Assembly: GCA_964551925.1 (NCBI GenBank)
Contig: CAZKFA010000007.1
Coordinates: 1-55,695 of the forward strand
DNA from: an uncultured Gammaproteobacteria bacterium
Lineage (GTDB): Bacteria > Cyanobacteriota > Vampirovibrionia > LMEP-6097
Length of the DNA stretch: 55,695 nt
Direction of reading: 5' to 3'
Part shown: in pieces, positions 19,220-48,431 of the stretch
How positions within the stretch are numbered: the first letter of the stretch is position 1
Layout: each line of letters starts with the position of its first letter
The notes under the pieces: generated by a model
What the model was told of the DNA's origin: nothing
What the model saw: the letters and a program-made list of their open reading frames with translations, nothing else
The model's database searches: none
Program-made: the position numbers and the translations under genes

Positions 19220-19686
19220 GCGAGCGAAGAAAAGTCTATACTAGCACTATTGCCTTGGTTGTTGTCTATGAATGCTTTTAACGCTAGTATATAACTTTGT
19301 TCTCCAAAGCCGCAGATTTGCCCTTTGCAAACAGCTACAGTAAGTGATTTATGGCGAAACTCTTCGCGTTTATAAACATTAGAAAGATGAACTTCTATGG
19401 TATCGATCTTGACAGCAGAGATGGCGTCCCTGATCGCAACACTAGTATGAGTATAGGCTGCTGGGTTAATAATAATGCCATTTACTTTGGCTTGTCCAGC
19501 TTCATGAATGCGATTAACTATTTCGCCTTCAACGTTGGATTGAAAGAAATCTATTTCAATATTATGCAGCTCGGCTAATTGTTTAAGATGATTATTGATT
19601 TGCTCCAAGGATACAACTCCATAGGTTTCGGTTTCCCTAGTGCCTAGTAGATTTAAATTAGGTCCATTGATAATTACAATTTTCAT
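19216..19686 (-). CDS. aroQ: type II 3-dehydroquinate dehydratase
   Basis: 156-aa ORF with [18 protein letters not shown] and [11 protein letters not shown] motifs. Confidence 0.92.
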
Positions 19687-20072
19687 TGAGCCGTACTATA
19701 CAGACTTTGGACTAAATCTAACAGTTCAATTGGGCTAAAAGGCTTGCTGAGAAAATAATCTGCACCAACTGACTTTGCCCACTCTTTATCTGTTTCTTGT
19801 CCTTTAGCTGTAAGTATTATAGTTATTATATCTTTTAAGTCAGGATTTTTTTTGATTTTTTCGCAGACCTCAAAACCAGACTGCCCAGGCATCATAACAT
19901 CAAGCAGCACAAGATCTGGTTTGTTTTTTTGGATTGCAATCATCGCTTCGTTGCCATCAGCAGCTTCTTCTATTTGGTATTTATTTTCAGATAGAAAAAT
20001 AGCCTTAAGTAAAGTCCTTAAAGAACTTTCGTCATCAACAACCAAGATTTTTATTTTTTTTGCTTCTTCCAT
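19683..20072 (-). CDS. single-domain response regulator (CheY-like receiver)
   Basis: 129-aa ORF with [18 protein letters not shown] and TAKG. No output domain. Confidence 0.85.
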
Positions 20073-32674: not shown

Positions 32675-32754
32675 TTAAATAAAGGCATTTTATTATCTTG
32701 TCTCAAGGGACTTGGTTTTACCAGAAGATTTATTGCACAGCAGAAGGCTTTGTT

Positions 32755-32769
32755 TTAAGCTTGGCTTAA
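32755..32769 (+). promoter_or_regulatory. weaker TTAA-N7-TTAA site
   Basis: TTAAgcttggcTTAA upstream of the 32882 gene. Different distance to the nearest -10 (TAGAAT 32803-32808) and purines after each TTAA. Confidence 0.25.
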
Positions 32770-32780
32770 GATTTCACTAC

Positions 32781-32869
32781 TGCGAATCTTTCTCAATAAG
32801 TGTAGAATGATAGTAGTTATTGCGAATCTTTCTCAGTAACTAAGGTTACTTGCAAAGTTTTCTCAGTAA
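32781..32869 (+). repeat. three 19-nt direct repeats TGCGAATCTTTCTCA(A/G)TAA
   Basis: Copies at 32781-32799, 32821-32839 (18/19 identical to the first) and 32851-32869 (TGCAAAGTTTTCTCAGTAA). Spacings are 40 and 30 nt. They end 12 nt before the ATG at 32882. Confidence 0.8.
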
Positions 32870-32881
32870 ATTGTGGCCCAT

Positions 32882-33934
32882 ATGCAAATCAGCAATACCA
32901 TTAACAGCAGACCCATTGCTCTACCAGCAGCTGTAGAGCAAGTCGCAGTCAAAGCTCCTGTGATAGATCTAACTAATAAATTATTACAAAACTTAGCAAT
33001 AAACAAAGCTCAATTCACCAGTAAAGTTGCAGAGAAGTTTTCTTTATTGGAGATTGGTATGGGAGCTTTTTTGTCGATCGCCCGTTGGCGCTTAGATGAC
33101 TTTGCGTATTTTGTAACTTCTGCTCTGGAGTGGTTTGAAAATAAAATTCAAGATATTCAAGGTACCAAAAATTTCCCACCATTAATACAAAATGCCTTTA
33201 CTGCTTTATTTAAATTAATGAACCGTACTAATAAAGATGGCTCAGAGATTCAGGTTGCAGATCTGGATAAACATAGAGAAGCGATAGTTGGATCGGTAAA
33301 TTTTTTTAGTACACTACCGGTCTTGATTGCTTCTGTTTTTCGTGCCGTTAAAAATTTAATCTCATTAAAGGAACAAGTGCCAAGAGCGGAACCTAGTGGA
33401 CTTCTAATGAAAGCCTTCTTGTATTTAGCACCTCTATTAAATACAGGTGCTATGTGGCTTTCGGCGGCTGGTAAAGCAGCTCCTGCTGAAGCGATGCAGC
33501 AAGTTGTTAGTAAGTCTAAGACAGAGATTTATAACAGAGATTCTATGGTTGATGATTACAACACGACGCTTAATTCAGTGAATGAAGATAAATTATGTGG
33601 TTTGATGTCAGCAGGTTTAGCCGTGACTCCGATATTAGGTAAGATTTTCCCGCGTTTTGATAAAGCGATAGAAAATATTTATGCTACTTATATCTCAGCA
33701 AAGAGCCTAGCTAATGGTTGGCAGGGTATGGCAAGTGGACATCACGATGATAGCCCAAGATATAATTTATCTGCTTTTGATCATAACTTAATGCAGGCTT
33801 TAGAACCAGCGAAACAATTCGTTTGTAATCTAGCTGGCATCAAAGTTCCAGCACTAGAGACATTTACTAATTTAATGCAGAAGCCAACCGATAGAACGAC
33901 ACATCAGCAGGCATTACATGTGTTAGCCGTCTAA
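32882..33934 (+). CDS. hypothetical protein with several hydrophobic segments
   Basis: About 350-aa ORF (ATG at 32882). No recognisable family. Convergent with flgC. Confidence 0.55.
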   Translation: MQISNTINSRPIALPAAVEQVAVKAPVIDLTNKLLQNLAINKAQFTSKVAEKFSLLEIGMGAFLSIARWRLDDFAYFVTSALEWFENKIQDIQGTKNFPPLIQNAFTALFKLMNRTNKDGSEIQVADLDKHREAIVGSVNFFSTLPVLIASVFRAVKNLISLKEQVPRAEPSGLLMKAFLYLAPLLNTGAMWLSAAGKAAPAEAMQQVVSKSKTEIYNRDSMVDDYNTTLNSVNEDKLCGLMSAGLAVTPILGKIFPRFDKAIENIYATYISAKSLANGWQGMASGHHDDSPRYNLSAFDHNLMQALEPAKQFVCNLAGIKVPALETFTNLMQKPTDRTTHQQALHVLAV

Positions 33935-33941
33935 AGTTTGA

Positions 33942-34403
33942 CTAACTATTCTTCGTCATATTAAGAGCCTCTTGAGAAGCTTTTTTCGCCATTTCAACGA
34001 TACTTAAATTTGCCTTGTATTGTCTTACGGCATCCATCATTTTTAACATCTCACCAGCACCATCAACGTTAGACATCTCAACATTGCCGTTGGCGTCAGC
34101 CATTGGATGATCGGGCATAAAAACTTTTATTCCTGGAGTATTGTCAACCATTACCTTTGCGATTTGTACGCCTTCGCCTTTATGTTCGCCTTTGATGATT
34201 GAACCAATCTCACCATCTTCACTACCTAAGCTTGAAAGTAAAGTTGAGAAACTACTGTCATTAACCTTGGCTGCAAAAACAGGACTCTTTGCTTTATAAC
34301 CTGGAGTGAGCATGTTTGCTACGTTCTCGGCAGCAAGTTCCATCGCTCCCCGTGTAGCTTCTAATCCATTGTGTGCGGTGTCGTAGATATTGAATATGCT
34401 CAT
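33942..34403 (-). CDS. flgC: flagellar basal-body rod protein FlgC
   Basis: 153-aa ORF. N-terminal rod motif ENVANMLTPGYKA and C-terminal VDGAGEMLKMMDAVRQYKANLSIVE. Confidence 0.9.
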   Translation of the reverse strand: MSIFNIYDTAHNGLEATRGAMELAAENVANMLTPGYKAKSPVFAAKVNDSSFSTLLSSLGSEDGEIGSIIKGEHKGEGVQIAKVMVDNTPGIKVFMPDHPMADANGNVEMSNVDGAGEMLKMMDAVRQYKANLSIVEMAKKASQEALNMTKNS

Positions 34404-34750
34404 TATGCTGCCCTTCCTGATTGTGTCGCTTCTTCCATATGTTTATAAATATGACCGTTAATTCTTGTTAACAGCACATACTTAAGGTGATTCTCTGCCA
34501 TTTCAGCTAGTTCTTTCTCGTAGCTTGGTTTCTGGTTAGTATCTTCTATAACAGCTTTATTAATGATGGAGTCCATGCTTTGATTAACAGCCCCATGTTC
34601 TAAACCTTTCATCACTTGGCCAAAATCTAAATCTTGCCTAATGTAGCCGGGTGTATTAACGTTGGTTAGGTTATTTGCAAGGATTTGTTGCCTATCGCCA
34701 ACCGCGCTAATTAATGTATTTAAAACTTTTTCTTCGTGACTATGTAACAT
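34403..34750 (-). CDS. flgB: flagellar basal-body rod protein FlgB
   Basis: 115-aa ORF with the LANNLTNVNTPGY rod motif. TAATG overlap with flgC. Confidence 0.85.
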   Translation of the reverse strand: MLHSHEEKVLNTLISAVGDRQQILANNLTNVNTPGYIRQDLDFGQVMKGLEHGAVNQSMDSIINKAVIEDTNQKPSYEKELAEMAENHLKYVLLTRINGHIYKHMEEATQSGRAA

Positions 34751-34768
34751 ATGAATTTCTCTGCCATA

Positions 34769-34801
34769 GTTATATAAGATAAAGGTTAAGCCCTGGTTAA
34801 G
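34769..34801 (-). promoter_or_regulatory. TTAA-N7-TTAAC-N10-TATAAC promoter module upstream of flgB
   Basis: Minus strand reads CTTAACCAgggCTTAACCTttatcttaTATAAC. Two 8-mers spaced 11 bp apart. Confidence 0.55.
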
Positions 34802-34804
34802 CTT

Positions 34805-34813
34805 TGCTATAAT
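34805..34813 (+). promoter_or_regulatory. extended -10 TGcTATAAT, 7 nt upstream of the proA ATG
   Basis: Perfect extended -10. No Shine-Dalgarno. Confidence 0.5.
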
Positions 34814-34820
34814 TAAGGCA

Positions 34821-36128
34821 ATGAATTTTGAAAAAACATCTACAACTGGCTCTGAAATAGGTATAAATGACCAAAAGCAGGTATTAGAGCGTTTGCAAGA
34901 ACAAATAAAGTTAGCTAAGAGATCTGCTATTAATATGGCTGTTCTTTCTGAGGGACAAAAGAACTACGCTCTTGAACTCGTAGAAAGAGAGTTAAGAGAG
35001 TCTATTAATTATATTGTTGAAGCTAATAAACAAGATTTGGACAATCCCGAGAATGCGGACCTAACTCCAGCGATGCGGGACAGATTGTTATTAGATTCTC
35101 AGCGCATAATGTCTATGGCAAATGGTTTGCGTAAAATTATTAACAGTAAGGATCCTATTGGTAATGTGTTAGAAGGTTGGCAACATCCTAATGGTATGAA
35201 GATTACTAAAGTTAGGGTGCCACTCGGTGTAATTGGGATTATTTATGAAGCAAGACCAAACGTTACTACCGATGCGATCGGACTTGCAATTAAATCTGGC
35301 AACGCTGTTGTCTTGAGAGGTTCTAAGCAATCTTGGCACACAAATAATGCCATTATGGTTGTTGTCAATAGAGCGCTGTCACAGACAGCAGTATCTAAAG
35401 AAGCTATTCAATATTTAGGAGATAAAACTCGTGAGGGTTGTAAACTATTGTTGCGAGCAGTTGGTCTCATTGACTTGGTTATACCGCGTGGTGGTGAGAT
35501 ACTCAATAAATTTGTTACTGATAATGCTTTAGTGCCAGTACTCGGAGCTGGTGGCGGTACTTGCCATACTTACATTGACCAGTTTGCTGACCTTGATAAG
35601 GCAATTAAGATCGCGGTTAACGCCAAGGTTTCTAGACCAAGCGTCTGTAATTCTTGCGAGACTATTTTGATACACAACGACGTCAAAGACCAGGTTCTAC
35701 CAGAGTTAGCGGAAGCTTTGATTGCGCATAAAGTAGAAATAATTGGTGATCAAGGAGTCCAGAAGTTATTACCTTTTTGCACGGCTGCGACAGAAGAAGA
35801 TTGGTCTAAAGAATATTTAGATCTCAAAGTCTCAATTAAAATAGTTGATTCAATTGAGGAAGCAATTCAGCATATAAATTTCTATTCAACAAAGCACTCA
35901 GAAGCTATTATTACTGAGGATAGGGAGAATGCAGATTTATTTATGCGTATGATTGATTCAGCCTGTGTGTATATTAATGCTAGTACTCGTTTCACTGATG
36001 GTGAGGAGTTTGGCTTTGGGGCTGAGATGGGGATTAGCACTCAGAAGATGCACGCACGCGGGCCTATTGGGCTAAAAGAACTTTGTAGTTATAAATATAT
36101 TATCGAAGGTAATGGACAAGTGAGATGA
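34821..36128 (+). CDS. proA: glutamate-5-semialdehyde dehydrogenase
   Basis: 435-aa ORF with GVIGIIYEARPNVT, VVLRGSKQS, CNSCETILIH and FGFGAEMGISTQK motifs. Confidence 0.93.
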   Translation: MNFEKTSTTGSEIGINDQKQVLERLQEQIKLAKRSAINMAVLSEGQKNYALELVERELRESINYIVEANKQDLDNPENADLTPAMRDRLLLDSQRIMSMANGLRKIINSKDPIGNVLEGWQHPNGMKITKVRVPLGVIGIIYEARPNVTTDAIGLAIKSGNAVVLRGSKQSWHTNNAIMVVVNRALSQTAVSKEAIQYLGDKTREGCKLLLRAVGLIDLVIPRGGEILNKFVTDNALVPVLGAGGGTCHTYIDQFADLDKAIKIAVNAKVSRPSVCNSCETILIHNDVKDQVLPELAEALIAHKVEIIGDQGVQKLLPFCTAATEEDWSKEYLDLKVSIKIVDSIEEAIQHINFYSTKHSEAIITEDRENADLFMRMIDSACVYINASTRFTDGEEFGFGAEMGISTQKMHARGPIGLKELCSYKYIIEGNGQVR

Positions 36129-36712
36129 GGCTTGGCTTATTTGGCGGTACTTTTGATCCAATTCACTACGGTCATATAAATATTGCAATTGAAGCTCAAC
36201 GCAAATTTCAACTAGATAGAGTTGATTTTATTATTGCCAAATCTAGTCCGTTTGCTAAGCAGATTTTATTTACAGCTGAACAGCGTTTGAATTTAGTTAA
36301 GCAGTTCCTTGCAGAGAAACAAATTGAGAATTTTGCGGTTTCAAGAGTTGAATTAGATAGATCTGGCCCTTCTTATAGTTATCAAACTGTAGAGAATTAT
36401 CGCCAAGAATTCCCAGAAGCGGAGCTGTTTTGGATTATGGGGGCGGACGCTTGGAACTCTTTCTATGAATGGAAAAGCTATCAATATATTGCCGAGAATG
36501 TTACTTTTATTATTTTTGCTAGAGCTGGTTCTAAACCCAATAACCTAGTTAGTGACTGGGACTTACACTTTTTGGAGGATAACTTGTATCAAATATCTTC
36601 AACTGAAGTCAAAGCAGCACTTACTGGTGATCAAAATAATTTATCAAAATTCTTTCCAAATACAGTAAATGACCTATTGATAAAGTACTACGCAGATAGA
36701 ATTGTGGAATAA
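36125..36712 (+). CDS. nadD: nicotinate-nucleotide adenylyltransferase
   Basis: 195-aa ORF with GLFGGTFDPIHYGH and ISSTEVK motifs. 4-nt overlap with proA. Confidence 0.88.
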   Translation: MRLGLFGGTFDPIHYGHINIAIEAQRKFQLDRVDFIIAKSSPFAKQILFTAEQRLNLVKQFLAEKQIENFAVSRVELDRSGPSYSYQTVENYRQEFPEAELFWIMGADAWNSFYEWKSYQYIAENVTFIIFARAGSKPNNLVSDWDLHFLEDNLYQISSTEVKAALTGDQNNLSKFFPNTVNDLLIKYYADRIVE

Positions 36713-36719
36713 TCTAATT

Positions 36720-37268
36720 ATGGCAGAGAAAGAAAATAAAGAAATCAGACCGACTACGCCTGCATCTGGAGCTCCTAATATGATCATGGTCATATTGTTC
36801 ATTTTTATTGCAGCGTTTGGTGGTTGTTTGCTTGCTTTTCAATTGGCGCCAAAGACAATAACTGTAAACCAAACTCTTCATGAAGCGAAGGAGCCTAGCG
36901 AGGGAGATCATTTGCCGATCTATCCACTAGGAGATTTTGTTGTTAATTTAGCTGATGCGAGTGGAAATCGTTTTCTTAAAGTTTCAGTGACAGCAAAATT
37001 ATATTCCGAAGATTTTGAAGAGTATGGCAAACTTTCAGGTGAAGAGCAGCATGCTTATCATGTACGTATTGAAGGTGATTTACATCCAGTTATGCCGGCA
37101 ATTAAAGACGTTATTATTACGACTTTATCACGTAAAAAAGCAGATGAGGTTATTGGCTATGAAAACAAACTAGCATTAAAAACAGAACTCAAAGAACATT
37201 TGAGTCATGTAATGCATGGTGAGTTTCAAATTTATGATCTTTACTTCACTGACTTTATTGTTCAGTAA
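36720..37268 (+). CDS. fliL: flagellar basal body-associated protein FliL
   Basis: N-terminal TM helix, then LGDFVVNLADASGNRFLKVSVTAKL, typical of FliL. ATG at 36720 preferred. Confidence 0.75.
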   Translation: MAEKENKEIRPTTPASGAPNMIMVILFIFIAAFGGCLLAFQLAPKTITVNQTLHEAKEPSEGDHLPIYPLGDFVVNLADASGNRFLKVSVTAKLYSEDFEEYGKLSGEEQHAYHVRIEGDLHPVMPAIKDVIITTLSRKKADEVIGYENKLALKTELKEHLSHVMHGEFQIYDLYFTDFIVQ

Positions 37269-37292
37269 GACACAATAGGGAGTGTACTGACA

Positions 37293-39341
<2,049 letters not shown>

Positions 39342-39375
39342 AACAAAGGTCTTATGATAATATTTAGAGCGTATT

Positions 39376-41208
39376 ATGTCTATCAAGAATCTTAGAGCCG
39401 CTTTAAAGGATATTCCTTGTTCTCAAGGGGCTTTGGCTGCTAGGCAAATTCAGCATTATCAAGAGTTTAATAAATTTTGTCATTGGATAGATGATTTGTG
39501 CGGTAGTTTTTCTAGTAAGATTAATTCAGTAGAAGAGTTTCATAGAGCAGCTAAATTTTTTGGTTTAGATTTAGAGTCAGCAAGTTTTAATCGAGATTTA
39601 GGGAGACTATTAACACAAAGAGCAATTAATATACCTCGCTCAGACTCACAAGAAGTGAAGCGACAAAATTTTATTTTTGATTATCTAATTGCTAAAACAC
39701 CTTTGCGGCATTTAGTAGAGCCTAGTGATCTAGCTGGGGGACTTTTTAAGACTATTGCTGATCAACAGCGTTTTGAGAAATTATTAGATTTGATTTTTAG
39801 TCATAGTCTAATCCAGGTTTATCAATCTAGCACTGGCAACTTAAAAGAGGTTGCTGGAGCTGCTTTGCCGCAATTTGCGGATTTGTCTTTGGATAAAGCA
39901 GCTGAACAAGCTATGTGCAACCCTGTGGAAGTTGCTCTGTTAGCTAATTTTAACCCTATCCCATATAATGATGAGCGATATCAAATTGCTCAATCTGCTT
40001 TTAGAGCTCTTGCTGCCAGGAGAAATAAGATCGATATCTTCTCAAAGTTCTTGAATAAACCTGTAATGCAAGAGGTTAATCAACAATTAAGTATGTCTTT
40101 GCGCGTGCTATCTACTTTTACTGAGTTACCTCAAGATTCTGCCTTAGTTAGTCAATTACAAACTCTCTTGCAGAGTGATTTTGCTCGCCATAATAATTAT
40201 TATGCTGGGCTGCTGTTGCGTGTCTTAGCTAAGATGCCTGAGCTTGATTATGATTCTAGATTGGTTCACAATCTAGCTAAATATTTGGATTCTTCTGCTC
40301 CAGGTTTGCAAATAGCAGCCGCTAAAGCTTTAACTAAAATTGATTGGTTTAGTAATCAACCAGAGCCATGGCTGTTAGCTGCTATCTTCACTAGTCTTGA
40401 AAAGCCTTTTGGTCAACAAACTGATTTAACGAGAAAAATATATTTGGCTAGTTTGTTTGATAAGTTTGATCTTGCTGGTCAATCGATACCGAGAGCTGTT
40501 CAATTCCGTGCTAGCAGTAGTTCTGATCATCTTGAAATTGTTTTATGGCGCAACATTGCTTCTGCTTATAGGCATATTCCACAAACAGAGGGTAGGATTG
40601 TAAGTAAGAATGGGATATTTCTTCCATATGATTTTCGGCATCTTTGTAGCATCACCACAAAACGATTAGATCTAGATAGAGGTCTTCATCAGATGTTAGC
40701 GGATGACAGAGAGTCTTTGTTACTTTATTTAAGAGCTTTAGCCTATGCTGTTATGCCGTCTGAGCAGTTTATGGAACATCACCTGGTAGATTTTAATCAT
40801 GATTTGGTAGCTTTTAAGCTTGGCTATGATAGAACCAATGACACGCGTATAGAACGAGCCACTACTGCTCTGGAGATATTGTTAACAGCTTTTGAGAAAT
40901 TTAAACCAGAGATTCATTACTCAGAAAGGATTTTAGATCTAATAGTAAGTATTGGTGATCTTGCGGTGCAAAGCTTGTTTGAGGCTTTAACAAGAAAGGC
41001 AACAGACAAAGCAACTGTCGATAATATTTTTGCGGCTTTGGATCATATTGTTTTGAAAGAACCGAATTTAGTAGATAAGTTTTTTACTGAGCATACTGCA
41101 GATGCTCGTTATTTAGCAACTTTACAAAAAGAATTTGACGACAATCCACATTATGCACTAGTATATCAACGTTTAGCTAAATATCTTCACTTGAAGAATT
41201 TATTATAG
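39376..41208 (+). CDS. hypothetical all-helical protein (possible HEAT/ARM-like repeats)
   Basis: 610-aa ORF. Segments such as LLLRVLAKMPELDYDSRLVHNLAKYLDSSAPGLQIAAAKALTKI look HEAT-like. No firm family. Confidence 0.55.
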   Translation: MSIKNLRAALKDIPCSQGALAARQIQHYQEFNKFCHWIDDLCGSFSSKINSVEEFHRAAKFFGLDLESASFNRDLGRLLTQRAINIPRSDSQEVKRQNFIFDYLIAKTPLRHLVEPSDLAGGLFKTIADQQRFEKLLDLIFSHSLIQVYQSSTGNLKEVAGAALPQFADLSLDKAAEQAMCNPVEVALLANFNPIPYNDERYQIAQSAFRALAARRNKIDIFSKFLNKPVMQEVNQQLSMSLRVLSTFTELPQDSALVSQLQTLLQSDFARHNNYYAGLLLRVLAKMPELDYDSRLVHNLAKYLDSSAPGLQIAAAKALTKIDWFSNQPEPWLLAAIFTSLEKPFGQQTDLTRKIYLASLFDKFDLAGQSIPRAVQFRASSSSDHLEIVLWRNIASAYRHIPQTEGRIVSKNGIFLPYDFRHLCSITTKRLDLDRGLHQMLADDRESLLLYLRALAYAVMPSEQFMEHHLVDFNHDLVAFKLGYDRTNDTRIERATTALEILLTAFEKFKPEIHYSERILDLIVSIGDLAVQSLFEALTRKATDKATVDNIFAALDHIVLKEPNLVDKFFTEHTADARYLATLQKEFDDNPHYALVYQRLAKYLHLKNLL

Positions 41209-41436
41209 TAAGCTACTCGGAATATATTTGCGGTTCAATTCTTCAGTACCTAATCCAAATTTGCTTTTGAGTAAATAGATACCAGTGCCACTAGGAAAGA
41301 CTCCGTAAGTGTTTTTGTAAAGATTGGCGATGATTTTATAAGCTTCTTCCTCATCTTCAATTGCATTCACCAAGTCGATTTCCTCTTCGCTTAGCCCTTC
41401 GATAAAATTATTTATAATCCCCTCTGATAGAAACAT
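41203..41436 (-). CDS. hypothetical small acidic protein
   Basis: 77-aa ORF. TATATA lies 6 nt upstream of the ATG. No family recognised. Confidence 0.4.
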   Translation of the reverse strand: MFLSEGIINNFIEGLSEEEIDLVNAIEDEEEAYKIIANLYKNTYGVFPSGTGIYLLKSKFGLGTEELNRKYIPSSLL

Positions 41437-41524
41437 ATAGTTTATATATACCCATTCTTTTGGAATTTATATCAGAATTAAAATCAAGTTTTTAGATCAA
41501 GGGCCAATACCTAGATAGGGACCC

Positions 41525-41944
41525 CTAGCGCAATAGTAAATTAACTGCTTGAGAGATCTTTGGTATATAGGTGAAACGCCCTCTGAGAGTCCAAAGAAAG
41601 GCATATAGTATCAGTATATTCATGGCGATAGCGTAGACGTATAAGACAGCGTTTTGTAATAAACTAAGTAGCTTAACAGTGTTTGCAAAAACCACAAAAA
41701 TATCAAGTAAGTTCATGAGAAAGCTCATTAATAAGATAAAGAATTGTGGCAGAAAAAATACGATCATATTAATAATTAGAGCTTGATAGCAATGATATTT
41801 GATGAAATCCTTAAGATAGATTTTCTTGATGTTGGCTATAATCAGCCAGGCAATTGGGATCCATGCGACAAGTGGAATGAATTTCGCTGTATACAGAAAG
41901 GCACAAATAAATCTATCCCTTGTCGTTGATAAGTTGCTGTTCAT
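41525..41944 (-). CDS. small polytopic membrane protein, possibly Tic20/DUF4870-like
   Basis: 139-aa ORF with 3-4 TM helices. The KYHCYQALIIN motif resembles the conserved H..QA motif of Tic20-like proteins. 4-nt overlap with hisS. Confidence 0.45.
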   Translation of the reverse strand: MNSNLSTTRDRFICAFLYTAKFIPLVAWIPIAWLIIANIKKIYLKDFIKYHCYQALIINMIVFFLPQFFILLMSFLMNLLDIFVVFANTVKLLSLLQNAVLYVYAIAMNILILYAFLWTLRGRFTYIPKISQAVNLLLR

Positions 41945-43191
41945 GAAACTCCTTTTATAAGGGTTAACAAAGCTTCATAATTATCTAGTTCAAACTCCTT
42001 ATTCTGCATGAGATTTTTGGCTTTGAAGCGACCAGAGGTTCTCTCATCGATCAGATAAAATACCAGCCATTGATAATTTTTTTTCAAAGCTTTTTCAAAT
42101 TGTTTTTTGAACTTGTTGTTTTCATAATCATATTCAACGGTTAGATTTGTCTCGCCTCGTAATTTGATCGCTAATTGATGAGCATCGATAGCAGAGTCAG
42201 AGAGTATAAATAAAGAATTGGCAGCAGAAATTTTGATTTGTAATAATTGAGCAAGGCGCTCTTGTCCTAGAGCCCAACCAACAGCAGGGTTTGGAGCGCC
42301 ACCAAGGTTGTTAATTAATTCATCATAGCGACCACCAGCTAGTACTGTATTTTGAGTACCAAGTTCTTTGGAGCTACTTTTGATTTCAAACACGCAGTGC
42401 GAGTAATAATCTAAACCACGCACTAGTTGTTGATCTACTATATATTTTATGCCCAGTTGTTTAAGACCAGCTAACATTTCTTGCCAAATATCTTTAGACT
42501 CTTGATCAAAGAAGTCGTGAATATTTGGGGCTTGTTTGTATAGAACTTGGTCATCAGGTGATTTGCAATCAAGGCAGCGCAAAGGATTTGTTGTCAAACG
42601 GCGCTTACAATCATCACAAATACTAGCTTCATGAGATTGAATGAATTCGGTTAGTTTGCTGATATAGTTTTGGCGTGAAATATTATTGCCAATGGAGTTG
42701 ATATATAGAGTAAGATCTTCTAGACCTAATTTCTTGAGTAGTTGCAGCCCAAGGTCTATTACTTCTAGATCAATATAAGGAGCTTTGCAACCAATGGCTT
42801 CTATGCCGATCTGGTGAAATTGTCTGTAACGACCAGTTTGCGGGCGTTCATAGCGAAACATTGGTCCACGATACCAAAGCTTCTGAGGTTTACCCTTCTG
42901 CTCTAAATGATGCTCAATAAAAGCTCTTGCGATTCCAGCAGTTGCTTCTGGTCTTAAAGTTAGCGATCGTTCACTTTTATCAAGGAAGGTATACATCTCT
43001 TTGTTGACGATGTCGCTGCCCTCACCAACACTTCTAGCAAATAACTCAGTTGCTTCAAAAATAGGTGTGCGTAATTCTTGATAGCCTGCGCTATGGAAAA
43101 TTTCAGCAGCATAATTCTCTATTAATTGCCAGACCCTGGTTTCGGTTGGGAGTATGTCTTGAGTCCCTCTTGCTGCCTTGATTTGAGCCAT
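41941..43191 (-). CDS. hisS: histidine--tRNA ligase
   Basis: 416-aa ORF with FRYERPQTGRYRQFHQ and GGRYDEL class II motifs. Confidence 0.93.
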   Translation of the reverse strand: MAQIKAARGTQDILPTETRVWQLIENYAAEIFHSAGYQELRTPIFEATELFARSVGEGSDIVNKEMYTFLDKSERSLTLRPEATAGIARAFIEHHLEQKGKPQKLWYRGPMFRYERPQTGRYRQFHQIGIEAIGCKAPYIDLEVIDLGLQLLKKLGLEDLTLYINSIGNNISRQNYISKLTEFIQSHEASICDDCKRRLTTNPLRCLDCKSPDDQVLYKQAPNIHDFFDQESKDIWQEMLAGLKQLGIKYIVDQQLVRGLDYYSHCVFEIKSSSKELGTQNTVLAGGRYDELINNLGGAPNPAVGWALGQERLAQLLQIKISAANSLFILSDSAIDAHQLAIKLRGETNLTVEYDYENNKFKKQFEKALKKNYQWLVFYLIDERTSGRFKAKNLMQNKEFELDNYEALLTLIKGVS

Positions 43192-43874
43192 TAATGATCT
43201 AATCCCGTATAAGCAAGCAAAGTGAAGCTAACATTCAAGTCAGTGTTGCGAGCTTGTTCTAGAGGATCAGCTCCTCGTGTTGAACCTTGAGTGAATCTTT
43301 TATCTGAACCCATTCCTTTAGTTGCAGTGCTTTTAGACATGGCAATATCAGAGATTTCTACAGCACGATAATAGGCGATGACATCACGAAAGAAATTTGT
43401 GTATTGCTCGAATTTACCTTTAGAATCAATGCTGATAACTGTTTTGAGAACTTTAGCATGTTGTTCTTGAAGGTTTTTTTGTTTCTTATTAAATTTCGAA
43501 CGTTTATTGATTTCTTGTCCAGTAATAGTAATAGGCACTGCTTCTTTTGGCATAAAACTAATCAATTCAATTTTATTCTTACGAGCGAGTTCCTCAAGAT
43601 CTCTTACCAAAAAACCTCTATCCTCAGAATTAGGAATTTGATTGACCAAGCTGTCTATTTCTAATCTAATTGCATCAATTGATGCTCTAAAAGCAACGAG
43701 CTGTTCTCTACTAACTTCTGGTCTGCTTAATTCAGCCTTAACTGCTCTAAGTTCTTGGCGTAATTTTTTGCTTTCATCGCTAGTTGGTTTGTAAATCATA
43801 ATAAAACAAGCTGCAACTACGATTACACTTAGTACAACAAGTATATTTTTCTCTTTTTCTTGAATAACGAGCAT
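43191..43874 (-). CDS. PilO-like membrane-anchored coiled-coil protein
   Basis: 227-aa ORF with N-terminal TM helix, a coiled coil, then KTVISIDSKGKFEQYTNFFRDVIAYYRAVEISDIAMSK, matching the PilO-type pattern. No pilM/pilN nearby. Confidence 0.45.
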   Translation of the reverse strand: MLVIQEKEKNILVVLSVIVVAACFIMIYKPTSDESKKLRQELRAVKAELSRPEVSREQLVAFRASIDAIRLEIDSLVNQIPNSEDRGFLVRDLEELARKNKIELISFMPKEAVPITITGQEINKRSKFNKKQKNLQEQHAKVLKTVISIDSKGKFEQYTNFFRDVIAYYRAVEISDIAMSKSTATKGMGSDKRFTQGSTRGADPLEQARNTDLNVSFTLLAYTGLDH

Positions 43875-43901
43875 TATAGTTCGATTTTAACATCAATAAT
43901 C

Positions 43902-43921
43902 TTAAGGATCCACTGAAAAAT
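43902..43921 (+). repeat. conserved 20-mer TTAAGGATCCACTGAAAAAT (copy 1)
   Basis: 19/20 identical to 47441-47460. Both lie in divergent intergenic regions, upstream of a TTAA-N7-TTAAC module. Confidence 0.8.
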
Positions 43922-43943
43922 GGACTATAGTACCATTTTTCAG
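43913..43943. promoter_or_regulatory. perfect 11-bp inverted repeat CTGAAAAATGG-N9-CCATTTTTCAG
   Basis: The left arm is part of the conserved 20-mer. The loop ACTATAGTA is itself near-palindromic. No flanking T-run, so operator-like rather than terminator-like. Confidence 0.5.
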
Positions 43944-43980
43944 GGTGTCTTTAGCCGTCATCACTATTATCCTTCAGAGC

Positions 43981-44013
43981 CTTAACCGAAACTTAACGTA
44001 TTTTGTGTACTAT
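43981..44013 (+). promoter_or_regulatory. TTAA-N7-TTAAC-N10-TACTAT promoter module upstream of the M23 peptidase gene
   Basis: CTTAACCGaaaCTTAACGTattttgtgTACTAT, ending 8 nt before the ATG at 44022. Confidence 0.55.
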
Positions 44014-44021
44014 GGCGGCAG

Positions 44022-44861
44022 ATGGAAGGGTCACAAATCCCAGTTGAATACAGAATAAATCAGCTAAGCGCACGTTTAGATAGTCTAATTAATGATGGCC
44101 CAGCTCTAGGCTCGGCTCCAGTTAATATAAACGATCCACAAGATTTTCGTGCTCTTGCCATGATGATGCAGAGTAAAATGCTTGGTGACGCCTTAGGATC
44201 CAATGATGATGATAATTCTAATCCCATGGCTGCTTTTATGAATCCTATGATAATGGGAATGAACAACCCTATGACGGGTAATAATCCAATGCAAGCTATG
44301 AATAATCCCATGATGGGATCTAACCCTATGCTTGCTGCCATGATGATGGGTTCAAGCCCTTATGCAATGCCAAATAACTATATGCCTAATACACCGCAAA
44401 TTCAATCTGACTCTATGGTGTTTCCTTTGCAGGGAAGGGTGAGTAGTCCTTATGGTCATCGTCATCATCCTCTTGATAAGCATGAAGCTTTTCATTCAGG
44501 AGTTGATATTGCTGCCCCCCAGGGTTCTGCTATCCGTGCTCCATGGGCTGGTAGAGTGGTTTTTGTAGGTCATGCCGATGGCTTTGGTTCCAAAACGGTA
44601 ATAGTTGCTCACGAGAATAATAAACAAGCTGACGGTAAAATAGTTTATTCAGTATTTGGGCACAATCAAGACGTCTTTGTTAAAGAAGGCGACTATATCA
44701 ATCAGGGAGAGGTTTTTGCGACTGTTGGTAGTGATGGTCATTCGACTGGTCCACATTTACATTGGGAAACGCGCATCGCTAATCCTAATTTGCAAGCTAA
44801 AGAAGTTTTTGAGAAGCATGTGTCGATGACGGTAGATCCTTTAACTTTCACTACTGCTTAA
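44022..44861 (+). CDS. M23 family metallopeptidase with Met/Asn/Pro-rich linker
   Basis: 279-aa ORF with HxxxD (HSGVD) and HxH (HLH) M23 motifs. Six NPM repeats at residues 67-103. Confidence 0.85.
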   Translation: MEGSQIPVEYRINQLSARLDSLINDGPALGSAPVNINDPQDFRALAMMMQSKMLGDALGSNDDDNSNPMAAFMNPMIMGMNNPMTGNNPMQAMNNPMMGSNPMLAAMMMGSSPYAMPNNYMPNTPQIQSDSMVFPLQGRVSSPYGHRHHPLDKHEAFHSGVDIAAPQGSAIRAPWAGRVVFVGHADGFGSKTVIVAHENNKQADGKIVYSVFGHNQDVFVKEGDYINQGEVFATVGSDGHSTGPHLHWETRIANPNLQAKEVFEKHVSMTVDPLTFTTA

Positions 44862-45413
44862 AAATTTCTTTAATTCATTTATAGCTTTTGCTCTATGACT
44901 ATGTTGATTTTTATAATCATCGCCTAGTTCAGCGACTGTTAAATTCTGACCTTTGGGTATTACAATTGGATCATAGCCAAAACCATTATGTCCACGGGCT
45001 TCTAGGCTGATATCACCGTGCCAGTATTGTTCTGTTTGAAAAATTATTTCTCCATTCGGGTTCATTAATACTAGGCAGCAAACAAATCTACAACTGCGAT
45101 CTTCTTTGCCTTGCATTTCTGCGAGTATTGCTTGAATCCCGTGGCTCTTTAGAAAACGTCCGGCATAAATACCTGGTCTACCATCAAGCGCGTTGATTTC
45201 TATACCACTATCATCAGCCAATACGTAAGAATGACTGAATGTGACTCCCGCTTTAGCTTTGATGGTGGCGTTTTCTAGGAAGCTAGAACCAGTTTCTTCA
45301 ACATCAAAACTCTTATCAATGGCTTTGAATAAAAATCCGCTACTCGTTTTATTGAACTCGGCAATTTTGCCTTGATTGCTGGAGGCTATGATTATTAAGG
45401 GGATTCTGGGCAT
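44841..45413 (-). CDS. rdgB: dITP/XTP pyrophosphatase (HAM1/RdgB family)
   Basis: 190-aa ORF with IIASSNQGKIAEF, DDSGIEINALDGRPGIY and GFGYDPI motifs. Confidence 0.9.
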   Translation of the reverse strand: MPRIPLIIIASSNQGKIAEFNKTSSGFLFKAIDKSFDVEETGSSFLENATIKAKAGVTFSHSYVLADDSGIEINALDGRPGIYAGRFLKSHGIQAILAEMQGKEDRSCRFVCCLVLMNPNGEIIFQTEQYWHGDISLEARGHNGFGYDPIVIPKGQNLTVAELGDDYKNQHSHRAKAINELKKFLSSSES

Positions 45414-45420
45414 CTAATAT

Positions 45421-45426
45421 ATTATA
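45421..45426 (-). promoter_or_regulatory. -10 box TATAAT, 7 nt upstream of the rdgB ATG
   Basis: Overlaps the divergent cysE TATAAT within the palindromic ATTATAAT. Confidence 0.5.
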
Positions 45427-45428
45427 AT
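45423..45428 (+). promoter_or_regulatory. -10 box TATAAT, 8 nt upstream of the cysE ATG (45437)
   Basis: Perfect consensus. Supports the MFKLIKREV start. Confidence 0.5.
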
Positions 45429-45436
45429 TGAAGCAG

Positions 45437-46087
45437 ATGTTTAAATTAATTAAACGCGAAGTTTTAAATGTTTATCGCAAGGATCCTTCTTGTAATTCGA
45501 CTATTGGTATTTTTCTTTATTACCCAGGCTTTCAGGCGGTTTTGGCTCATAGAGTTTTTCATGTATTGTGGAAACTTAATCTTGGCATTTTGAATCATCC
45601 GAAGACTATATTGATTCGTTTTATGGCTCATCTAGTCAAAATCCTTACAGCAATTGAAATTCATCCTGCTGCTACCATCGGTAAGAATTTTTTTATTGAT
45701 CATGGCACCGGTGTTGTGATTGGTGAGACAACAGAGATTGGTGATAACGTAACTTTATATCAAGGAGTGACTTTGGGTGGGGTCTCTATCCAGAAAGCTA
45801 AACGTCATCCGACTTTGGGCTCTAATATTGTTATTGGTGCTGGTGCTAAAGTGCTTGGCAATATAGTTATTGGCGATTACGTGCAAGTAGGAGCTAATGC
45901 TGTCGTGCTTAAAGATGTACCTTCAAACAGTACGGTAGTCGGCATCCCAGGGCGCATTATCAAAATGAACGGTGATCTTAAAGATTGTATCGAGAATCTA
46001 GAGCACCACAAAACCCCAGATTATATTGGCGCTACCTTAGAGCTGCTCAGTGAGAGGCTTGCAGCGCTGGAGTCCAAAGACAAATAG
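45437..46087 (+). CDS. cysE: serine O-acetyltransferase
   Basis: [24 protein letters not shown] and hexapeptide repeats ([29 protein letters not shown]). ATG at 45437 preferred, with TATAAT 8 nt upstream. Confidence 0.9.
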
Positions 46088-46118
46088 ACTAATGTTGACA
46101 CTAATTTAGTGAATTACT

Positions 46119-47399
46119 CTATACCGTAACAGCTTTCGGCGACTCAAAAGAATTCTCTGGATAAATTAACCATGAACGTTTGAAATCATTCTCTACTAAA
46201 GACTTGACGACATGAGAGACTGTAGAGATTTCTTTAAGTCCACCATCTTGGGTTTGTATAAAGATTGCTTTGTTAGAATCACTAGGATCTGGATTGTAAA
46301 AGCTATAACTTTTAGCTGCAATATCGACTATATCAAGGAAGTATTCTGGTTCTAGTCCTGCCTTACGCACTTCCTCTGCTTTTTCTTCGTAGAGAGTTTC
46401 TGTGTTGATATTTGGTTCAAGAGCCTTTGCCTTAAATAGATCTCTAGTGATAAATCTTTTTGCCAAGTTTTTGAGAATATAATCTTTCTCATGACACCAA
46501 TGCTTGATGTGATGCAGTAGATTAACATCGTCAACTAGAAGATAATTTGCAACAGACATGCGCTCTGGCTCTATAAGCCAATCAAGGAGAGGCTTTTCGA
46601 TAAAGGACATTTTGCGATTGCGGATTAATAATTTAGCTCGTTTGAGTAGTTTGTATAACAATGTATCAGAAGCGAGTGATTTTTTGTGTTGATAAACTTG
46701 CAGGTACATAGAATATCTAGCGTATAGATAGTCTTCAACAGCAAGCATGCCTTTCTCGTTGCTGACAACAAGGCAATCTCTCTCGCGATTGACGCTGATG
46801 ACACTAATAACTCGTTCAAGATCAAACTTACCGTAGGAAGTGCCAGTGTAATAACTGTCTCTTAATAGATAATCAAAGCGATCACAGTCTATTTGGCTAT
46901 TAACAAAACTTGACAAGAATTTTTGTGGGTATGTTTTGTTTATGATCTGTACAACCTCTTTTGCTAAGCCAGTTTGATGGGCTTCAAGGATTTGATTGAT
47001 CTCGCTCTCTGGGCTGTTAATGAGCTTGATAGTCCAAGTCTCGTGTCTAATCTCATTTATCGATTCAGTACTATGGCTAAAAGGACCATGGCCAATATCG
47101 TGTAGGAGTGCTGCACTAAGAACTAATTTTTTATATTCATTTAGAGTCTCTTGATCCAGATTTAAATCTTTTGCAATTTTTTGTAGCATTAGTCTTGCGA
47201 TATGCATGGTTCCCAGTGAATGCTGGAAGCGGCTAGCTTCTGCTCCATGAAAAGTAAACCAACCAGTACCTAATTGTCTAATCCAGCGTAGTCGCTGTAC
47301 TTCTCTACTGTCAATTAATTTGATGATTAAGTCCTCAATTGGATCAGCGTCATCGAGAGTGATTTCTTTATGTATTGGATCTCTATAACTGCGGGGCAT
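46119..47399 (-). CDS. HD-domain phosphohydrolase (SAMHD1/COG1078-like)
   Basis: DPIHKEITL, EVQRLRWIRQLG and LLHDIGHGPFSH motifs. ATG at 47399 preferred over the GTG at 47417. Confidence 0.85.
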   Translation of the reverse strand: MPRSYRDPIHKEITLDDADPIEDLIIKLIDSREVQRLRWIRQLGTGWFTFHGAEASRFQHSLGTMHIARLMLQKIAKDLNLDQETLNEYKKLVLSAALLHDIGHGPFSHSTESINEIRHETWTIKLINSPESEINQILEAHQTGLAKEVVQIINKTYPQKFLSSFVNSQIDCDRFDYLLRDSYYTGTSYGKFDLERVISVISVNRERDCLVVSNEKGMLAVEDYLYARYSMYLQVYQHKKSLASDTLLYKLLKRAKLLIRNRKMSFIEKPLLDWLIEPERMSVANYLLVDDVNLLHHIKHWCHEKDYILKNLAKRFITRDLFKAKALEPNINTETLYEEKAEEVRKAGLEPEYFLDIVDIAAKSYSFYNPDPSDSNKAIFIQTQDGGLKEISTVSHVVKSLVENDFKRSWLIYPENSFESPKAVTV

Positions 47400-47440
47400 T
47401 ATATTATAAGGATACACTTAAAATACCGCCTAAATTAAAT

Positions 47441-47460
47441 TTAAGGATTCACTGAAAAAT
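47441..47460 (+). repeat. conserved 20-mer TTAAGGATTCACTGAAAAAT (copy 2)
   Basis: 19/20 identical to 43902-43921. Confidence 0.8.
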
Positions 47461-47471
47461 TCAAATTCTTC

Positions 47472-47504
47472 CTTAACCGCAATTTAACCAAAATATGTTA
47501 CTTA
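47472..47504 (+). promoter_or_regulatory. TTAA-N7-TTAAC-N10-TACTTA promoter module of the orphan short transcript
   Basis: CTTAACCGcaaTTTAACCAaaatatgtTACTTA. Same spacing as the flgB and M23 sites. Confidence 0.5.
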
Positions 47505-47511
47505 GAAGGCA

Positions 47512-47618
47512 GCTTAGTTAATGACTTGCCCAGGTTCATTAAATAAGCAAACTGTAGGACTAGGCCCAAGATTGCTGCCTGATGAGTTGTAAGTCAATCT
47601 TGGTACTAGTCTTTTTTT
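47512..47618 (+). ncRNA. candidate short orphan transcript (sRNA or 23-codon micro-ORF mRNA)
   Basis: Bounded by a TTAA-N7-TTAAC-N10-TACTTA promoter (47472-47504) and an intrinsic terminator (47558-47618). Contains ATG 47521 to TAA 47592 (MTCPGSLNKQTVGLGPRLLPDEL). 5' segment AGGCAGC (47507-13) is complementary to terminator-loop GCTGCCT (47574-80). The 5' end is an estimate. Confidence 0.35.
47558..47618 (+). terminator. intrinsic terminator of the orphan short transcript
   Basis: GACTAG/CTAGTC plus CCAAGATT/AATCTTGG (14 bp with a 2x2 internal loop and a 22-nt apical loop), followed by T7 (47612-47618). No plus-strand gene upstream could use it. Confidence 0.6.
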
Positions 47619-47708
47619 GTTATTATTTGGAGTAGCGCCGTTGGACATTAAGATTTGCTCATTTTGGGTGTGGTTCTTAACCTTTTTCGGGTATAAAACC
47701 AATATGGG

Positions 47709-47741
47709 TTTAACTTTTTGTTAAACTTTATATCAATAATC
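47709..47741 (+). promoter_or_regulatory. TTAA-N7-TTAAA-N10-ATAATC promoter module upstream of the 92-aa orphan gene
   Basis: TTTAACTTtttGTTAAACTttatatcaATAATC. A further CTTAACCT lies 33 nt upstream (47676-47683), in 11-bp phase. Confidence 0.4.
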
Positions 47742-47780
47742 TGATTAGTACACCGTTGTATTAGTTAAGGAGTATTCCGA

Positions 47781-48059
47781 ATGAACTTTGGCCCAATAGA
47801 TAATTTACCTACCAATAGACTTGGAGTACAAAAGAATCTAAGTCCTTTACATGCTGCAACAGAAGCAGCTGGTACTTTTGCTGCTAAGGTAACAGGATTT
47901 TTTAGTGAACCTGTTAAGGAACAGCGCGCTAGGACTGAGATAGAAAGCTGGCATAGAAATTTAACACCTGGTGCAAGACCGGGGACTTCTGATAGTTTGG
48001 GTTTGCTTAGTGATCGTTTAAGTAGAGCCTCGCGCTCATCTTTTAATACAGCAGCTTAA
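47781..48059 (+). CDS. hypothetical 92-aa protein
   Basis: AAGGAG Shine-Dalgarno 8 nt upstream. No family recognised. Confidence 0.5.
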   Translation: MNFGPIDNLPTNRLGVQKNLSPLHAATEAAGTFAAKVTGFFSEPVKEQRARTEIESWHRNLTPGARPGTSDSLGLLSDRLSRASRSSFNTAA

Positions 48060-48113
48060 TTTTTTATTTTTGATCTATCAAAAATCCAATCAAACTCACG
48101 TTATATAACTACG

Positions 48114-48427
48114 ATGAGTATCAATTCAGTAAACAGTCTTAGTGGTAGTGATTCGGGGGGCATTGAAAAACCATCTCAAGCGCAAGCTCCAGTATCAGAG
48201 TTTAAACCAGAAGCGCAAGTGATCCCAGCGACTGATAATGGTGCTGCTGGCAGAGTTAAGGTAAGTTTACACAAACCAATGCAATCGGCTCATCCAAGTG
48301 GAATTGATAATTTACGTCAAGCTTTAACAAGATTCGCTAAAGCCGAACGAACAGCAGAAGTTATTTCTGGTGGCAATTTATTCTTGCAAGAGACTATACT
48401 TGAGACTTTACTTTACAAACAAGCTGC

Positions 48428-48431
<4 letters not shown>
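48114..48431 (+). CDS. hypothetical 105-aa protein
   Basis: TATATA lies 6 nt upstream of the ATG. Ser/Asn-rich N-terminus. No family recognised. Confidence 0.5.

Follow-up and report, generated by a model that had tools for sequence, protein, structure and literature searches.

We analyzed a 55,695-bp window (the whole stretch of DNA under study, from contig CAZKFA010000007.1) whose host is a Caenarcaniphilales member of the Melainabacteria, a non-photosynthetic group related to cyanobacteria and mostly known from metagenomes. Homologues of its FlgB protein were found in metagenome-assembled genomes (MAGs) labelled Melainabacteria, "Cyanobacteria bacterium" or Candidatus Caenarcanales, and several metagenomes contain the flgB region in identical form. 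The genes flgB (34403-34750) and flgC (33942-34403) form a minus-strand operon (33942..34750), recognized by Pfam matches to Flg_bb_rod and Flg_bbr_C and by homologues named FlgB in Melainabacteria MAGs. Pfam also identified FliL, FliM, a PilO-like protein and, on the plus strand, an M23 peptidoglycan metallopeptidase (44022..44861); the remaining genes are housekeeping. A stretch lacking open reading frames (ORFs) carries a conserved small RNA of ∼108 nt (47511..47618, plus strand). Upstream of flgB, the M23 gene and the small RNA lie three copies of one promoter module, made of two TTAAC-containing boxes and a −10 element, which is the subject of this report.

The motif TTAAC-N6-TTAAC has exactly three matches in the window (34785-34800 on the minus strand; 43982-43997 and 47473-47488 on the plus strand), against 0.20 expected, and none of 100 shuffles reached this count. 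All three copies are intergenic and aimed at a downstream unit, namely flgB, the M23 gene and the ORF-less stretch. The over-representation is lost when one mismatch is allowed (13 matches vs. 7.6 expected). In the flgB module (34769..34801, minus strand), box 1 (CTTAACCA, 34801-34794) and box 2 (CTTAACCT, 34790-34783) are followed by the −10 TATAAC (34774-34769), and the predicted start is the A at 34762, which would give a leader of 12 nt. The M23 module (43981..44013, plus strand) comprises CTTAACCG (43981-43988), CTTAACGT (43992-43999) and the −10 TACTAT (44008-44013); its predicted start, the A at 44020, falls 2 nt ahead of the ATG, so that the transcript would be near-leaderless. In the small-RNA module (47472..47504, plus strand), CTTAACCG (47472-47479) and TTTAACCA (47483-47490) precede the −10 TACTTA (47499-47504), which has an extended −10 TGt immediately upstream, and the predicted start is the A at 47511.

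The common anatomy is a pair of direct repeats, CTTAAC(C/T)N, that start 11 bp apart (one helical turn), with a weak −10 (TAnnnn) 8–9 bp past box 2. With +1 set 7 nt past the −10, box 1 spans −39 to −32 and box 2 −28 to −21, such that the boxes stand in place of a −35 element; promoter scanning found neither a −35 hexamer nor a sigma70 consensus at the module, and no sigma70 consensus promoter in the small-RNA region (47400-47800). A 33-nt matrix trained solely on flgB orthologue sites gave 27.5 bits for the flgB site, 23.2 for the M23 site and 18.7 for the small-RNA site. An earlier note on this DNA, made from the letters alone, had described four intergenic sites with a single layout. The four strings it quoted are all present where it placed them, and the flgB, M23 and small-RNA sites do share the layout, whereas the fourth, upstream of a 92-aa gene, scores at background. 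The downstream GGCAG that it noticed is likewise real in the window: it begins 4 nt past the −10 at all three good sites and puts an A at each predicted +1 (34762, 44020, and 47511), with only ..CA(+1)G of this stretch retained in relatives. Another two-box-like site, at 32738-32770, was rejected, being made of the palindrome CTTAAG, lacking a −10 and not being conserved.

Related loci were obtained by anchoring on flgB, an HD-domain gene or fliF. For flgB we compared one genome per species, 27 related loci and the window making 28, with FlgB proteins 43–75% identical to that of the window. The pattern [CT]TTAACCN-N3-CTTAANNN-N8-TAnAnn lies upstream of flgB in 28 of 28 species with fixed internal spacing, box 1 being degenerate in L008 (TTTTACCA) and L013 (TATAACCA). 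Mean information per position across these sites was 1.37 bits in box 1, 1.34 in box 2 and 0.81 in the −10; the linker (0.41), the spacer (0.29) and the upstream 15 nt (0.18) carried less. The earlier note had suggested looking for the boxes upstream of orthologues, and they are conserved not only at flgB but also at 13 of 14 M23 genes and 11 of 11 small RNAs.

The distance from the −10 to the flgB start codon ranges from 6 to 121 nt and is exactly 6 nt in 10 of the 28 loci, which makes the A of the ATG the predicted +1 and the mRNA leaderless. This coincidence, with a similar arrangement in several M23 and fliE orthologues, supports the assignment of the −10. Housekeeping genes in the neighborhood show TATAAT, then 6–7 nt, then ATG, so leaderless transcripts seem to be normal in the lineage.

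On the other side of the flgB promoter, the divergent proA-nadD-fliL-fliM unit is likewise leaderless, its ATG following 7 nt after a consensus TATAAT (34808-34821). The boxes in the window sit between two divergent −10 elements, 8 bp from that of flgB and 6 bp from that of proA, and binding there should also affect the proA promoter. The distance between boxes and proA promoter is not conserved in other species.

Both boxes are kept upstream of the M23 gene in the window and in L007, L009, L010, L012, L015, L032, L033, L049, L050, L052, L054, and L055; the remaining orthologue, in L061, retains box 1 and the −10 with a degenerate box 2. Start codons lie 5–25 nt past the −10. The protein is assigned by Pfam Peptidase_M23 (2.6e-24), with NCBIfam M23 endopeptidase-type matches all below cutoff, and N-terminal alignment revealed a lineage-specific region (GSQIPAEQR...FKAxAxMMQxQM) followed by a Met/Gly/Asn-rich linker. 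The rod-associated role put forward in the earlier note found no support, as no FlgJ rod-binding domain was detectable: six M23 N-termini, examined for PF10135, gave no Pfam match of any kind at E-values up to 10, and hhalign against the Salmonella FlgJ N-terminus returned a probability of 0.1%. A FlgJ-like N-terminus was therefore rejected, and the link between the M23 protein and flagella is one of co-regulation only.

The small RNA was compared across 11 orthologues from loci fetched via the adjacent HD-domain gene. Its promoter has the two boxes and a TGn extended −10 in all 11. In the RNA, a 5′ hairpin displays GCCCAGRUU, UGUAGGACUAG is conserved, and a long hairpin with a trailing U run forms the terminator; the loop sequence is GCCCAGAUU, and a motif shared by the 11 orthologues, GCCCAGAUUC, reads GCCCAGGUUC in the window. 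The window sequence has a minimum free energy of −36.3 kcal/mol (z = −4.2). Nine orthologues adopt a common two-hairpin fold despite differing 5′ stem sequences, compensatory changes affect 7 of the 16 terminator pairs, and there is no conserved ORF. Membership in a known RNA family was rejected, since Rfam 15 gave no match in the window at the gathering score and only chance-level matches at E-values up to 10. No consistent target emerged when 572 kb of related loci was searched for complements of GCCCAGAUUC.

Two small, fast-evolving genes, neither in any family, always lie downstream of the small RNA (47781-48431 in the window, and L047-L062). The first (92 aa) is recognizable by position only; weak homologues of the second, which is 105 aa long in the window, have NP.AQV(I/M)P in common.

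Scanning with the 33-nt matrix showed how far the module extends. In the window and the 27 flgB loci together, the matrix found 37 sites of at least 14 bits (1.9 in shuffles), all of them intergenic and gene-directed; the same threshold gave 44 sites in 516 kb of flgB- and HD432-anchored relatives and 0 in 908 kb of outgroup loci. A matrix of the two boxes alone had 49 matches vs. 3.2 in shuffles, nearly all intergenic. The 31 sites at genes other than flgB independently yield the consensus CTTAAC(C/T)N-N3-CTTAAC, the overall layout [CT]TTAAC[CT]N-N3-CTTAAC-N10/11-TAnnnn is kept, and in about 59 sites, drawn from five gene families, the two boxes always stand at a spacing of 11 bp.

The fliE-fliF-fliH genes are among the targets. 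In Caenarcaniphilales loci reached via the FliF of a distant relative, the module stands directly upstream of fliE in five of six (L128, L129, L130, L134, and L135), with a spacer of 8 or 9 bp, and the sixth (L136) carries a degenerate CATAA version. In L134, which shares a metagenome sample with contigs bearing the exact FlgB of the window, a site of 25 bits is also found at the head of a conserved operon encoding three coiled-coil proteins (212, 94, and 86 aa), an arrangement repeated in L129 and L135. We infer that fliE-fliF-fliH and the coiled-coil trio are targets in the window species as well. Module-like sites of 13–18 bits also precede lineage-specific proteins without a family: an acidic, low-complexity protein of 475–480 aa in L023 (17506-18933, minus strand) with an equivalent in L024, and a 354-aa protein near flgH in L129 (19432-20559, plus strand). 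These are possible extra members of the regulon. Pfam assigned no family to the coiled-coil trio, the 354-aa protein or the 475-aa protein of L023.

A second melainabacterial lineage, whose FlgB is only 35% identical, has flgB inside one large operon (L127 and L131-L133) in the order flgF-like, flgG-like, two or three unknown genes, flgB, flgC, an SLT lytic transglycosylase, fliE, fliF, an unknown gene and fliH. Here a degenerate module, [CT]TTAAC[GT]T-N3-[CT]ATAA-N11-TATA[TA]A, precedes the first gene of the operon and not flgB, which implies that the module goes with whichever promoter drives the early flagellar unit and is not tied to one gene. The transglycosylase gene of this operon (L127 10893-11429, with equivalents in L131, L132, and L133) sits between flgC and fliE, a position at which Caenarcaniphilales have no SLT gene and have instead a separate, co-regulated M23 peptidase. 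The presence of a hydrolase gene in the flagellar operon of the second lineage would fit a function of the M23 protein in cutting the wall.

The fourth reported site (47709..47741, plus strand) is not a member of the module. It appears only when one mismatch is allowed, also matches on the opposite strand, and scores −5.6 bits, or −0.7 with a 9-nt spacer (rank 170 of 111,320 window positions). Its equivalent in L047-L052, L060, and L061 is CCTTAAKM-TTTnTG-TTATAAT, one half box and an extended −10 promoter, to which the window sequence TTTAAC-TTTTTG-TTAAACT aligns. The site is better read as a CTTAA-like half box (47709-47716), TG (47719-47720) and the −10 TAAACT (47722-47727); given the extended −10 of the relatives, the putative second box, GTTAAACT, corresponds to TG-n-TAAACT. 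An additional in-phase CTTAACCT listed at 47676 is not conserved. In L027-29, L053-55, and L057-58 the gene at this position has two reverse-oriented boxes upstream of a TTGTCA-N18-TATATA promoter, and the gene may be influenced by the same factor without having the claimed architecture. The 92-aa protein itself has a single near-identical homologue among 5.8 billion sequences; positional analogues exist and are too divergent to align.

A shared element upstream of two window sites, TTAAGGATYCACTGAAAAAT, was also set aside: it is a palindromic repeat, dispersed over many contexts, and does not belong to the module. This palindrome, TTAAGGATCCACTGAAAAAT...ATTTTTCAGTGGATCCTTAA, occurs as full hairpins or halves, often at gene ends or in enlarged intergenic regions, with copies in the window (43902-43950 and 47441-47460), L015 (five), L017 (three), and upstream of flgB in L027, L028, and L058. 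The two window copies happen to fall upstream of module sites. Its distribution suggests a REP-, MITE- or terminator-like repeat.

Elsewhere in the window, the 353-aa gene beside flgC (32873-33934) was rejected as a regulon member, its conserved upstream elements being Fur-like 7-1-7 boxes. Two such Fur/Zur/PerR-type palindromes, which read TTGCGAATCTTTCTCA in this stretch and TTGAGAATnATTCTCAA in relatives, flank a TAGAAT −10 at 32790-32860 and recur upstream of orthologues in L007-L022, so that this gene looks metal-regulated. A minus-strand gene at 19683-20072, among aromatic amino-acid and radical-SAM genes, encodes a stand-alone receiver-domain protein of 129 aa without a DNA-binding domain, its best NCBIfam match being the PhoB receiver (1.6e-32). 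Another minus-strand gene (3488-4903), adjoining dnaN and with no pstCAB nearby, encodes a protein of 471 aa in which an N-terminal extension of 200 aa precedes a phosphate-binding domain of the PstS family, scored below the NCBIfam cutoff; no box lies upstream of the gene.

We consider it probable that a conserved cis-regulatory module, present at the three sites, defines an early (basal-body) flagellar regulon in Caenarcaniphilales and related Melainabacteria, most likely one activated by an OmpR/PhoB-family protein. The small regulon proposed in the earlier note, joining flagellar rod genes, the M23 peptidase and an orphan short transcript, has a genuine shared promoter architecture, which also reaches fliE-fliF-fliH. 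In the mechanism we envisage, a dimeric winged-helix response regulator of the OmpR/PhoB family would bind the two boxes head-to-tail and recruit sigma70-type RNA polymerase, as in PhoB-type class II activation. Transcription would then start about 7 nt after the −10, with many transcripts predicted to be leaderless or nearly so. The targets would be flgBC, the M23 peptidase and the ∼108-nt small RNA, joined, via the contig tentatively assigned above to the window species, by fliE-fliF-fliH and the coiled-coil operon.

Such an activator is favored by the PhoB-like geometry, the SphR Pho-box repeat unit and the match to the CtrA site; the assignment of the predicted binding protein to the OmpR/PhoB family is drawn from the geometry and sequence of the sites. 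As at OmpR/PhoB sites, the module has tandem repeats with a period of ∼10–11 bp that replace the −35 near a recognizable −10. In Escherichia coli a Pho box is built of direct repeats of 8 bp separated by 3-bp linkers and stands 10 bp ahead of the −10 (PMC1906773). Like PhoB class II promoters, which have two direct repeats of 7–8 bp, a linker of 3–4 bp (11-bp period) in place of the −35, and ∼10 bp before a TAnnnT/A −10 (PMC1906773), the module pairs its boxes next to the −10, here with a gap of 8–9 bp. Its box, however, is CTTAAC vs. CTGTCA in E. coli, and its targets are flagellar and not phosphate genes.

The TTAA-N7-TTAA sequence common to all three window sites is also, as the earlier note stated correctly, the full site of CtrA, which lies near the −35 at activated promoters and activates flagellar promoters (PMC6180460). 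The resemblance to alphaproteobacterial class II flagellar promoters is literal, TTAA-N7-TTAA(C), and includes the position near or over the −35 and the control of early flagellar genes, divergent flagellar promoters among them (PMC6180460). CtrA, however, is an alphaproteobacterial cell-cycle regulator (in the CckA-ChpT-CtrA pathway) and the host here belongs to the Melainabacteria, while the conserved positions of the module extend to CTTAAC(C) in both halves. On taxonomy alone, binding by a CtrA orthologue is unlikely.

FtcR is an OmpR-family regulator that acts at early flagellar promoters; to our knowledge, nothing comparable has been described for Melainabacteria. It has been described in Brucella as a master regulator of flagellar gene expression (PMC9456535), and is similar to the regulator proposed here in its master control of flagellar genes but different in lineage and binding sites. 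Our literature search found no description of flagellar gene regulation in Melainabacteria. Members of the group are reported to encode cyanobacterial-type OmpR-family regulators (homologues of RpaA and RpaB) whose role is unknown (PMC3787301).

Several observations weigh against an early flagellar regulon under an OmpR/PhoB-family activator. Searches with PhoB and OmpR (tblastn) of the window and ∼1 Mb of related loci returned stand-alone receiver domains only, and no OmpR-type winged-helix gene was present in the window or in any Caenarcaniphilales or second-lineage locus examined. The choice of loci by anchors samples regulon membership with a bias, and phosphate genes fall outside the sample. 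A site overlapping the −35 could serve a repressor equally well, especially at the small-RNA promoters with their extended −10. Finally, no T is conserved at −7 in the −10, an unusual feature for a sigma70 promoter.

The strongest competing explanation, which we nevertheless regard as doubtful, is that the boxes are true Pho boxes of a melainabacterial SphR or PhoB orthologue, and that phosphate starvation directly induces flagellum assembly as part of the Pho regulon. The earlier note had described the cyanobacterial SphR Pho box accurately: the unit, as in Synechocystis PCC 6803, is PyTTAAPyPy(T/A), with the consensus CTTAACCT and 3-nt linkers (PMC4195498, PMC1906773), and the window boxes CTTAACCA, CTTAACCT, CTTAACCG, CTTAACGT, and TTTAACCA all fit this 8-mer. 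Melainabacteria are, moreover, the sister group of Cyanobacteria (PMC3787301), and the two-box geometry beside the −10 is that of E. coli PhoB promoters (PMC1906773). Synechocystis, however, has three or four repeats 61–182 nt upstream of the start, controlling pst, phoA, and sphX (PMC4195498), whereas every site of the module has two repeats abutting the −10 and controls flgBC, fliEFH, the M23 peptidase or the small RNA; arrays of at least three repeats upstream of phosphate-acquisition genes were not found in the loci examined. All targets recovered from loci anchored on flgB, the HD-domain gene and fliF are flagellar or flagellum-linked, and the sole PstS-family-like gene of the window (3488-4903) is the box-less one noted above. 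No pst or phoU genes were present in the Caenarcaniphilales loci examined.

Less probable still is that the module binds a factor from a different family, or a repressor masking the −35 and spacer, and not an OmpR/PhoB-type activator. The failure to find a regulator in the window and related loci fits this explanation, as does the TGn extended −10 of the small-RNA promoters, which could fire without an activator, and in the window the boxes, lying 6 bp from the proA TATAAT, overlap the −35 and spacer of that divergent, leaderless promoter. That last arrangement, however, varies in distance between species, and direct repeats with an 11-bp period, 8–9 bp from a −10, mark tandem binding by winged-helix proteins (PMC1906773). 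Most target promoters, furthermore, have neither a −35 nor an extended −10, and their weak −10s (TACCCT, TAGATA) make them look activator-dependent.

We give very little credence to the idea that the conserved blocks are recognition elements of an alternative flagellar sigma factor of unusual specificity. Flagellar genes are often under dedicated sigma factors, the −10 differs from the housekeeping TATAAT of neighboring leaderless genes, and related loci L132 and L136 carry genes with sigma-70-family domains. Set against this, the distances to the −10 are unworkable (∼20 bp from box 1, 8–11 bp from box 2), the spacing between box 2 and −10 varies (8–9 bp) while that between the boxes is fixed, and sigma factors do not read promoters through two identical direct repeats. 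By inspection there is no similarity to TAAA-N15-GCCGATAA or GG-N10-GC, which bears out the earlier note on the absence of sigma28- and sigma54-type promoters at flgB. The sigma28 (FliA) element was absent from all 28 flgB upstream regions, and the window sequence TGGCAG-N5-TTCAT does not qualify as a sigma54 element, having no GC at −12, directly adjoining the ATG and not being conserved; both promoter types were rejected at flgB for want of a conserved element. Chance, or a dispersed repeat without a regulatory role, might be suspected in an AT-rich genome where TTAA-containing words are common, but is refuted by the comparative data, in which the site is kept at orthologous positions in 28 species while its flanks are not and the outgroup DNA has no matches, as well as by the shuffles and by the different behavior of the real dispersed repeat nearby (TTAAGGATCCACTGAAAAAT).

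As a kind of element, a response-regulator-type class II promoter defining a flagellar regulon is known; what is new is this regulon, together with its small RNA and unannotated members. The module predicts the membership of the early flagellar tier, unannotated members included (the M23 peptidase, the conserved small RNA and three coiled-coil proteins), as well as transcription start sites, many of them leaderless, and it focuses the hunt for a master regulator on proteins able to recognize direct repeats of CTTAAC. Its match to both the cyanobacterial Pho box and the CtrA box raises a testable question, whether winged-helix recognition codes were reused or converged. More tentatively, as one possibility among several, Melainabacteria may use a regulator with SphR-type Pho-box DNA specificity (an SphR orthologue, or a paralogue or orphan such as an RpaA/RpaB-like protein) as their flagellar master switch, with a regulon that includes a dedicated small RNA and an M23 peptidase replacing FlgJ/SLT wall cutting. 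If the SphR orthologue itself were the switch, flagellum assembly would be tied to phosphate starvation. An SphR-type switch of any of these kinds would be a non-alphaproteobacterial counterpart of CtrA control, and would suggest that the cyanobacterial phosphate regulator and the flagellar regulator share an ancestral recognition code.

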